Source: Oscillospiraceae bacterium (lineage in GTDB: Bacteria; Bacillota; Clostridia; Oscillospirales; Acutalibacteraceae). Taken from it: a stretch of DNA of 64,000 nucleotides. Both the position numbers and the translations under genes were made by a program. Shown here piece by piece: positions 35,295 to 35,559 of this stretch (position 1 is its first letter; every line of letters begins with the position of its first letter). The notes beneath the pieces were generated by a model. The model saw nothing but the letters and a program-made list of their open reading frames with translations, searched no databases and was not told the DNA's origin. Location: positions 1,407 through 65,406 of the forward strand of contig SVPC01000003.1 in NCBI GenBank assembly GCA_015066095.1. The letters are read 5' to 3'.

Positions 35295-35381
35295 TGGTGC
35301 CGGTGGCCGGACTCGAACCGGCACGCTGTCGCCAGCGGTGGATTTTGAGTCCACTACGTCTGCCAATTCCATCACACCGGC
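35295..35381 (-). tRNA. tRNA-Leu (anticodon CAA), CCA encoded
   Basis: Minus strand begins GCCGGTG-TG-ATG-GAATTGGCAGA-CGT-A-GTGGA-CTCAAAA-TCCAC, then a long variable arm, T-arm CCGGT-TCGAGTC-CGG..., and ends CACCGGC-A-CCA. Confidence 0.9.
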
Positions 35382-35387
35382 AAGTGT
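35360..35387 (-). repeat. direct repeat B: 6 nt leader + first 22 nt of the intact tRNA-Leu(CAA)
   Basis: 28/28 identical to 35532-35559, with a further ~4 nt of imperfect match upstream. Confidence 0.95.
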
Positions 35388-35531
35388 GAAATCATAATGT
35401 CAAGTAACTTTTGTGCTCGTGACTCTTGCGGTACCCGAAATTTATTTTTGGCTTGGAGCGCCGATAAATTTCGACCGCTGCGCCTTTTGCGCCTTCACTT
35501 CATCATCCGCCGGATGCGTTTGGCGCAAAAG
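35388..35531 (-). ncRNA. unclassified structured non-coding insert fused to a truncated tRNA-Leu 5' copy (homologous to 28977-29132)
   Basis: Minus-strand helices: CTTTTGCGCC/GGCGCAAAAG (10 bp), CATCC-GGC-GGATG, GCGGT/ACCGC, GAAATTTAT/ATAAATTTC capped by CGCTCCAAG. It shares the same order and the same single-stranded blocks as the Ser-linked insert. Confidence 0.6.
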
Positions 35532-35559
35532 CTGCCAATTCCATCACACCGGCAAGTGT
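35532..35559 (-). repeat. direct repeat A: truncated 5' copy of tRNA-Leu(CAA) (22 nt, 35532-35553) plus 6 nt of leader
   Basis: Identical to 35360-35387. It diverges from the tRNA one nt before the 3' D-stem strand. Confidence 0.95.

Follow-up and report, generated by a model that had tools for sequence, protein, structure and literature searches.

A conserved structured RNA family found beside partial tRNA gene copies in gut and rumen Clostridia

The tRNA-Leu(CAA) and tRNA-Ser(GCU) loci

We analysed a 64,000-nucleotide (nt) stretch of contig SVPC01000003.1 from an Oscillospiraceae bacterium, called the window below, in which the gene for tRNA-Leu(CAA) is preceded by a partial copy of itself and a short insert. 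This insert, together with a related one at tRNA-Ser(GCU), belongs to a new conserved structured RNA family. At the Leu locus, the sequence ACACTTGCCGGTGTGATGGAATTGGCAG is present twice on the minus strand, at 35559-35532 and 35387-35360, and the two copies, spaced by 172 nt, are identical at 28 of 28 positions. Each is composed of a 6-nt leader segment, ACACTT, and of GCCGGTGTGATGGAATTGGCAG, which is nt 1-22 of tRNA-Leu(CAA); when mismatches are allowed, the repeat extends to 35 nt at 91% identity. The upstream repeat (35532..35559, with the leader at 35554-35559 and the tRNA part at 35532-35553) is, as judged from its sequence, what remains of the 5' part of a tRNA-Leu copy that was disrupted. 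The downstream repeat (35360-35387) enters the intact tRNA-Leu(CAA) gene at 35295-35381, which was identified by ARAGORN and by the Rfam tRNA model (50.3 bits); the two together occupy 35295..35387. The 144-nt insert between the repeats contains no open reading frame (ORF). The repeat, ARAGORN and Rfam confirmed the order of truncated tRNA copy, insert and intact tRNA described in a first-pass annotation of this DNA, and the break in the Leu copy lies at the 3' edge of the D-loop, as was also stated there.

The same Leu arrangement was found in L119 (an identical JGI contig), in L124 (from ENA, 95% identical) and in L030 (a related Acutalibacteraceae metagenome-assembled genome, MAG). Because all three carry it, an assembly artefact, the duplication that the first-pass annotation had wished to see checked, is excluded. 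A consensus scan recovered a sigma-70-type promoter, TTGATT-17-TATAAT, on the minus strand at 35590..35618 (10 of 12 matches), which is kept in L124 and L030, and transcription of the Leu unit would start near 35583. The same kind of scan revealed no promoter-like site on the minus strand from 35559 to 35382, in agreement with the earlier proposal that a single upstream promoter serves the unit and that read-through into the tRNA is needed. An RNase P site is expected between 35382 and 35381, and the inverted-repeat search and the sequence itself revealed a terminator hairpin with 19-nt arms followed by a T run on the same strand at 35253..35295. Since the tRNA-Met and tRNA-Trp genes located upstream are bracketed by a separate strong promoter and a terminator, the Leu unit is an operon of its own.

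The Ser locus, on the plus strand, has the same layout, so the recurrence noted in the first-pass annotation stands. Here a 43-nt exact repeat occurs at 28934-28976 and 29133-29175. The upstream repeat (28934..28976) is made of 19 nt of the leader and nt 1-24 of tRNA-Ser(GCU), while the downstream one (29133-29175) overlaps the intact tRNA-Ser(GCU) gene called by ARAGORN at 29152-29245; repeat and gene together span 29133..29245. It should be noted that this 94-nt tRNA was called by ARAGORN and was not called by Rfam at the gathering threshold; the remaining four tRNAs of the window were called by both.

The tail that follows the conserved part of each insert also bears traces of the tRNA. The Leu tail (35388..35420, minus strand) consists of a decayed continuation of the tRNA copy, in which ACGAGC aligns to ACGTAG at nt 23-28 of tRNA-Leu, and then of the duplicated leader TTACTTGACATTATGATTTC. 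The Ser tail contains GAGUCAUUACUCUG (29097..29110, plus strand), which pairs in the minimum free energy (MFE) and centroid folds and complements the acceptor strand at 7 of 7 positions; by its sequence it looks like a remnant of the T-loop and the 3' acceptor strand of tRNA-Ser.

A new conserved structured RNA family

The alignment of the Leu and Ser inserts showed that they are homologous over about 110 nt. The core common to both consists of GCAGCGGUC, a hairpin, GCUCCAAGCC, the return strand of the hairpin and ACCGCAAGAG, and this pattern occurs exactly twice in the window, against 0.00 occurrences expected, so that a chance match is excluded. The two modules, as we call this conserved part, are 63% identical and their helices show compensatory changes. 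The first-pass annotation had described the Leu and Ser repeats as unrelated, and this is correct because they derive from different tRNAs. Its view that the loci share no sequence does not hold, and the homology was missed because only the repeats, and not the inserts, had been compared. The real common denominator of the two loci is the conserved structured RNA.

A covariance model was built from 69 module copies. When applied to the window, it found only the two copies, at 109.5 bits for the Ser module (28975..29090, plus strand) and at 106.1 bits for the Leu module (match at 35418-35535, module at 35421..35531, minus strand); the next match scored 8.7 bits. The module is about 116 nt long and folds into about five helices with covariation support. 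P1, of about 10 base pairs (bp), encloses an internal loop, GA(A)GCG / AUGAAGCGA, which holds a covarying 2-bp mini-helix. P2 is a 5-bp hairpin, and P3 (GCGGU paired with ACCGC) encloses P4, a long hairpin of 9-10 bp capped by a 3-4-bp stem with the loop GCUCCAA. In the Leu copy, P1 is formed between 35522-35531 and 35484-35493, P2 lies at 35504-35516, P3 is formed between 35474-35478 and 35428-35432, and P4 between 35464-35473 and 35436-35445; the apical stem-loop with GCUCCAA is located at 35449-35463 and the 3' end of the module, AAGAGUC, at 35421-35427, all on the minus strand.

The fold was examined using 93 distinct module sequences, with 500 shuffles and slid-partner controls. In these sequences, 84% of the cells are paired, compared with 37-49% for the slid partners, and 22 pairs were changed on both sides. 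The covariation score was 0.333, while the shuffled alignments gave 0.107, none of the 500 reaching the observed value, and the slid controls gave at most 0.109. Three of the four other whole-structure measures exceeded all 500 shuffles; meanwhile, the count of further pair types was not above chance, being reached by 287 of the 500. P1a, P2 and P4 are 97-99% paired and contain many double changes. A per-sequence parse showed that P1 covaries as well, with 8-10 of its 10 pairs formed in 81 of the 93 sequences and several pair types at most positions. P3 displays one compensatory change, from C-G to U-A, in a model-based match outside the search pattern. The invariance of CAGCGGUC, CUCCAAGCC and ACCGCAAG is partly owed to the search pattern, which requires these blocks; among the model-based matches outside the pattern they vary to a limited extent. 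The preservation of helices by compensatory substitutions is the general mark of a structured non-coding RNA, and these results show that the module represents a new conserved structured RNA family.

Two further ideas about the module itself were considered. A K-turn in the 5' domain is doubtful, as the GA pairs and the bulge, when read from the alignment, are off the canonical geometry. A derivation from tRNA-Trp, suggested by the resemblance by eye of GCAGCGGUC..CUCCAA..ACCGC..GAGGG to its anticodon arm, was rejected because the similarity was not significant: the collapsed module scored 24 against tRNA-Trp and its shuffled versions 22.6 +/- 2.7.

The distribution of the module was determined by a scan for the exact core pattern using one genome per species. 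The matches comprised at least 118 stretches, with 130 copies among them, all from Clostridia MAGs. The matches listed include Acutalibacteraceae, Oscillospiraceae, Ruminococcaceae, Anaerovoracaceae, Faecousia and Anaerotruncus, often with several copies in a genome, and more than 100 module loci belong to gut and rumen Clostridia. Head-to-tail tandem modules are present in L066 (108-nt spacing), L127, L006 and L059. At the tandem joins the 3' AAGAGG overlaps the next 5' GGGCA, which gives units of 105-113 nt; in L059 only the 3' domain is repeated, three times. L127 is an IMG/VR contig from sample 3300032167. Phage or plasmid cargo was rejected as an explanation: the module gave two matches in the 2.9 million viral contigs of IMG/VR, and no match in the INPHARED phage and PLSDB plasmid collections.

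Database searches are in line with the novelty of the family. The insert has no match in Rfam 15 at the gathering threshold; at E<=10 the insert region gave only the chance-level hits tsr24 (15.1 bits) and C/D-box sR41 (12.5 bits), and L015 gave only sR24 (17.7 bits), outside the element. None of the known ribozyme models in Rfam matched even at E<=10. Searches by keyword and with the literal module sequence gave nothing in the searchable literature or in the examined supplements of the human-microbiome RNA survey, and the module family is apparently undescribed.

Linkage to tRNA genes and comparison with known systems

An intact tRNA gene lies within 300 nt of 55 of the 130 module copies, and all 64 intact tRNAs near modules are on the strand of the module. 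Two layouts were observed. In layout A, that of the window, the 5' part of a tRNA is followed by the module, a tail and the intact tRNA; the hosts are tRNA-Leu (CAG, UAG, UAA, CAA), tRNA-Pro (UGG, CGG) and tRNA-Ser (GCU). The truncated copies of this layout match their tRNA in sense up to nt 22 for all four Leu isoacceptors, up to nt 23-24 for Pro and up to nt 24 for Ser. The intact tRNA of the Leu loci begins 27-73 nt downstream, and after (A/C)G(G)UC the Leu tails resume nt 23-29 of the cognate tRNA, reading ACGCGCU (CAG), ACACGCA (UAG) and ACGCCCG (UAA). On average the Leu tails match 5.1 of the 7 nucleotides of their own tRNA, and up to 7 of 7, versus 3.9 +/- 0.18 for shuffled queries; the decayed continuation in the window matches at 3 of 7. 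The junction at nt 22 and the tail resuming at nt 23-29 show that the module has been inserted cleanly into a tRNA-Leu copy, between nt 22 and 23. The remainder of these disrupted copies has been lost, with the leader, nt 1-22 and a few nucleotides after the module surviving.

Layout B begins with the intact tRNA and its terminator. A spacer and the module come next, and then a second copy of the tRNA 3' part, which in many cases includes the terminator as well. This layout was seen at tRNA-Pro (CGG, GGG, UGG), Met, Ser (GCU), Asn and Trp. The sequence abutting the 5' side of the module is in most cases a short sense-oriented fragment of that tRNA, and ahead of the fragment stand inverted copies of its anticodon arm or T-arm, which form hairpins. 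The junctions show microhomology, the module start GGGCA lying beside GGCA or UUUGGG of the tRNA and the module end AAGAGG(G) beside AGAGG or GAGGG. Other breakpoints fall in the anticodon loop or stem, in the variable loop and at the start of the T-stem. As the hosts and breakpoints of both layouts demonstrate, insertion goes beyond class-II tRNAs and beyond the D-loop. The restriction to class-II tRNAs suggested in the first-pass annotation therefore fails, with Pro, Met, Asn and Trp hosts occurring besides Leu and Ser. The equivalent break position that it reported holds for the Leu, Pro and Ser ends given above and is not shared by the breakpoints elsewhere.

The nt 22/23 insertion in four Leu isoacceptors also raises the possibility of a small ribozyme of a new kind, able to cleave or insert itself, or of an element that behaves like an intron of tRNA loops; the compact, pseudoknot-capable fold with invariant unpaired nucleotides could speak for this as well. 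An interrupted functional tRNA was rejected: all plausible boundaries of the 130 copies gave 33,600 module-deleted joins, and ARAGORN recognized a tRNA in none of them, while the control tRNA was detected. The copy hosting the module is incomplete in the tRNA-linked cases and an intact tRNA is always alongside, so splicing is not needed. In Archaea, the genes that carry tRNA introns are functional, and a splicing endonuclease, which bacteria are not known to possess, excises the introns at bulge-helix-bulge motifs. The archaeal introns, including the box C/D intron of tRNA-Trp, resemble the module in placing structured RNA at D-, anticodon-, variable- and T-loop positions and in allowing several inserts per gene, and they differ from it in that the interrupted module-bearing copies are incomplete and have an intact tRNA beside them. 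One tRNA-Asn copy, in L008, carries two modules after the anticodon loop and, in its T-loop, a further insert of about 75 nt that is unrelated to them, which fits the idea of loop-directed elements. Given the failed joins and the lack of an Rfam ribozyme match, we regard the ribozyme or intron explanation as quite improbable.

Other conserved inserts occupy T-loops in partial tRNA-Pro and tRNA-Asn copies that also bear the module (L060 at about 4050-4180, minus strand; L067; L082; L008 at about 6960-7040, minus strand), one example being TCTCGGCTGCCGCCTCGGTCGG..GCTTCTGTGCT..CGCACAGAGGTGTCC. This suggests that more than one family of inserts uses tRNA loops. In L174, from another lineage, a partial tRNA-Leu(CAA) copy (nt 1 to about 45) lies about 180 nt upstream of the intact tRNA-Leu(CAA) and is separated from it by an unrelated spacer of about 140 nt, with a GC-rich, structured-looking segment further upstream. 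The partial 5' duplication of tRNA-Leu(CAA) thus recurs with other inserts.

Partial tRNA copies beside complete ones are the classic footprint of integrative elements according to PMC9897764 (and Williams 2002 as cited there), and tRNA genes are preferred targets of such elements (PMC9897764). The borders are alike in that a complete tRNA and a direct partial copy flank the inserted DNA. However, integrative elements are kilobases long, encode an integrase and have a partial copy that stems from the 3' part of the tRNA, whereas the window loci have a 144-nt insert (at Leu) without an ORF, a duplicated 5' part and a conserved structured RNA. No tyrosine or serine integrase was found, and clustering of all ORFs within 2.5 kb of the 118 loci revealed no recurrent protein family, the top clusters being spurious ORFs across the module itself. 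In the window the duplicated part is 5' (nt 1-22 for Leu, nt 1-24 for Ser, each with leader), while a 3' duplication is seen in other members of the family. The loci could be relic attachment sites, that is, borders of an integrase-bearing island or prophage since deleted to about 150 nt, and the footprint described in that source and the 3' duplication of layout B would agree with this. Yet it is the 5' part that is duplicated here, the same covarying RNA stands at tRNAs for six different amino acids, the neighbourhood holds no integrase and the viral, phage and plasmid collections are nearly devoid of the module. This explanation is close to refuted.

Among known RNAs, the E. coli tyrT repeats (RtT RNA, RF00391) are units of about 180 nt linked to a tRNA, each with a short copy of the tRNA end. 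They are co-transcribed with the tRNA and released by tRNA processing, and their function is obscure; they lie downstream of the tRNA, copy its 3' end and are not known outside enterobacteria. RtT and the module are both tRNA-linked repeats containing a tRNA piece and have no sequence or Rfam similarity to each other, and the module, unlike RtT, occurs at many different tRNAs and also away from tRNAs. The 3'ETS-leuZ is a small RNA processed from the transcript of a stable-RNA operon. The small RNAs rrA, rrB and rrF arise from stable-RNA operon transcripts as well (PMC8144298). These RNAs likewise borrow the promoter and processing enzymes of tRNA or rRNA operons; they are not known to be located inside a disrupted tRNA duplicate, are single-locus and form no multi-copy family.

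The repeats ERIC, BOX, RUP and Correia/NEMIS are largely palindromic or have terminal inverted repeats and occur in both orientations. They share with the module a length of about 100-150 nt, multiple intergenic copies, transcription, a stable structure and the absence of coding capacity; the module, in contrast, is asymmetric, has several helices and invariant loops, and strictly follows the orientation of the tRNAs. The transfer-messenger RNA (tmRNA) and YrlA fuse a tRNA part to a functional RNA domain, and the Ser copy keeps a predicted acceptor-like closing helix, but the window copies have no T-arm or CCA end, and neither the ARAGORN tmRNA search nor Rfam revealed such an RNA. Miniature inverted-repeat transposable elements and insertion sequences do not fit either, as the flanking direct repeats, which consist of leader, body or terminator sequence of the tRNA, vary between 17 and 87 nt in length with no fixed target-site duplication, and GGGCA... 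at one end of the module forms no inverted repeat with ...AAGAGG at the other. As to omega RNA, HEARO RNA and the IS110 bridge RNA, there is no conserved neighbour ORF (TnpB, IscB, IS110) and no Rfam match. A regulator in the 5' untranslated region (5'UTR), such as a T-box, was likewise rejected: the first ORF downstream is encoded on the strand of the module about as often as on the other one, so the module is not a 5'UTR element, and no Rfam T-box match was obtained. By analogy, the module would work most like the tyrT/RtT repeats and the small RNAs of stable-RNA operons, while its genomic footprint resembles the partial tRNA copies of integrative elements. None of the compared known systems has all its defining features represented in the module.

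Expression, spread and age of the module

The reading we prefer, with a confidence that falls just short of even, is that the module is a small RNA linked to tRNA genes, which is transcribed together with the tRNA and set free by RNase P, and that the tRNA fragment is a scar of its spread. In favour of this reading stand the homology of the two window inserts, the many copies of the family, the covariation, the fixed junction in the Leu copies, the absence of a co-occurring protein gene and the retention of the module in the related species at about 4% divergence. Co-transcription is supported indirectly, by the one promoter upstream with none in between and by the same-strand position of all 64 nearby tRNAs. 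At the Leu locus, the single promoter at 35618-35590 would produce one RNA comprising the leader, tRNA nt 1-22, the module, the tail and tRNA-Leu. A cut by RNase P at 35382/35381 would mature the tRNA and free a module RNA of about 200 nt; both steps follow from established tRNA processing. The module may then act in trans on a protein or RNA partner through its invariant loops, the GCUCCAA hairpin loop and the GA-rich internal loop. The module would spread by insertion or recombination into loop positions of tRNA genes, and only those events would survive in which an intact tRNA copy remains adjacent. The tRNA fragment that is kept may double, in some copies, as one strand of a closing helix.

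Predicted folds of individual transcripts agree with the last point. The MFE and centroid folds of the Ser leader RNA contain a 13-bp closing helix between the tRNA 5' fragment, CGGAGUAGUACUC, and the tail GAGU(C)AUUACUCUG. In the Leu leader RNA, the 5' end, GUCGAGUAA, is predicted to pair with the tail UUACUUGAC, and L030 keeps a matching variant of this pairing (GUCAAGU with ACUUGAC), while no acceptor-like helix is formed in the Leu copy. In the tails, the complement to the acceptor 5' strand is slightly above chance (5.77 vs 5.44 +/- 0.12).

The predicted fold of the full Leu transcript allows a different explanation, since in it the upstream fragment, and not the genuine 5' strand, pairs with the 3' end of the tRNA. 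Nucleotides 1-22 could thus be a cis-acting decoy competing for the 3' acceptor strand, with the module tuning folding, RNase P processing or decay. The fragment is identical to the adjacent tRNA in every locus. The comparison with the L030 orthologue points in the same direction: the fragment has no substitutions in L124 and L030, although the leader and the flanking DNA are much more diverged, at 84-90%. The Leu module itself is about 95% identical to its orthologue, and the changes, among them one in P1 from G-C to G-U, preserve the structure. However, modules are also found downstream of tRNAs and away from them, layout B carries 3' and not 5' tRNA parts, and the identity of the repeats may equally result from gene conversion or recent duplication. 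Moreover, 112 metagenome loci have essentially the same tRNA-Leu(CAA) 5' half without the module and without such a leader. Control in cis therefore appears rather improbable to us.

Those 112 loci indicate that the arrangement is lineage-specific. The comparison with an empty site that the first-pass annotation had called for could be made only in part: the same-species contigs all carry the element, and the 112 module-free loci are not syntenic, so that no true empty site was found among them.

Several observations weigh against the tRNA-linked small RNA. More than half of the 130 copies have no adjacent intact tRNA, so linkage to tRNA is not obligatory. In layout B, a terminator separates the tRNA from the module, and the module would be expressed there only by read-through or from a promoter of its own. 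Pairing of the 5' and 3' flanks into a closing helix gave only a weak family-wide signal (-27.2 vs -25.1 kcal/mol, p=0.006), driven partly by duplicated terminators, and was dropped as a general feature, being kept for individual copies. Transcription, RNase P release and function in trans are all inferred. Finally, the signs of mobility, namely near-identical copies within a genome, head-to-tail tandems and inverted tRNA fragments, are as compatible with a selfish element as with a host gene.

Such an element would be miniature and non-autonomous, moved by an enzyme acting in trans or through an RNA or complementary DNA (cDNA) intermediate, without benefit to the host, and the tRNA duplications and inverted fragments would be by-products of its integration. 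Its multi-copy, dispersed occurrence, the 92-99% identity within some sets of copies in a genome, the tandems with 105-113-nt spacing and the repeated entries into loops of many different tRNAs could be explained in this way. The inverted tRNA segments beside the module look as if they came from template switching or snap-back synthesis, and the strict sense orientation fits an RNA intermediate. Meanwhile, no transposase, integrase or reverse transcriptase is linked to the module within 2.5 kb of the 118 loci, terminal inverted repeats are absent, the direct repeats differ in length, no empty syntenic site was found, and the orthologous copy was kept across species with structure-preserving changes. 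In most genomes the copies are old, other sets being 63-87% identical. In a genome with near-identical modules, the flank similarity decays gradually with no sharp stop, as expected of paralogous genes under concerted evolution rather than of fresh transposition. Conservation in an Anaerovoracaceae subfamily extends over about 300 nt and includes a downstream CUCCCUC-GUCA-GAGGGAG hairpin. In spite of the mobility signs, we consider a purely selfish element somewhat unlikely.

Units resembling repetitive extragenic palindromic (REP) sequences, GGACAGCCCTTGCGGCTGTCC ... CCCTACGG, were also seen around modules in Anaerovoracaceae-type genomes (L015 at 100-650, minus strand; L026; L035; L068; L076).

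A bolder proposal, which we hold to be doubtful, is that the module is the active RNA of a new mobile element free of protein genes that invades the D-, anticodon-, variable- and T-loops of tRNAs. It would be fixed through cDNA or template switching, which would give the sense flanks, the snap-back inverted fragments and the head-to-tail multimers, and it would correspond, in bacteria, to the mobile tRNA introns of Archaea or to tRNA-derived short interspersed nuclear elements, possibly with its own catalysis. If the reading that we prefer holds, gut and rumen Clostridia contain an abundant and strongly constrained RNA listed in no database. It would offer a testable handle on small RNAs that adopt tRNA promoters and RNase P, and another on short elements without protein genes that move between tRNA genes. 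Annotation pipelines should know the family, because the chimeras yield partial tRNA calls and contigs break near the cluster.

Such breaks were observed in four independent same-species assemblies, L121, L122, L123 and L125, whose contigs end 130-350 nt upstream of the yicC-like gene, inside or beside the tRNA-Met/Trp/Leu cluster, whose repeats may make assembly difficult. In the window, the ORFs near 35.3 kb are housekeeping genes (Zip, YicC, RemA and guanylate kinase). A perfect palindrome with 21-nt arms, AATTTTAAAATCCTTCACCAA / TTGGTGAAGGATTTTAAAATT, is located at 35196-35238, where it separates the end of the convergent ORF 34355-35197 from the tRNA-Leu terminator, and is probably a bidirectional terminator. 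The window also contains three riboswitch aptamers, THF (21995-22092, minus strand), ZMP/ZTP (19137-19216, minus strand) and FMN (61148-61261, plus strand), which score well above the Rfam gathering thresholds and are consistent with a Clostridia genome.

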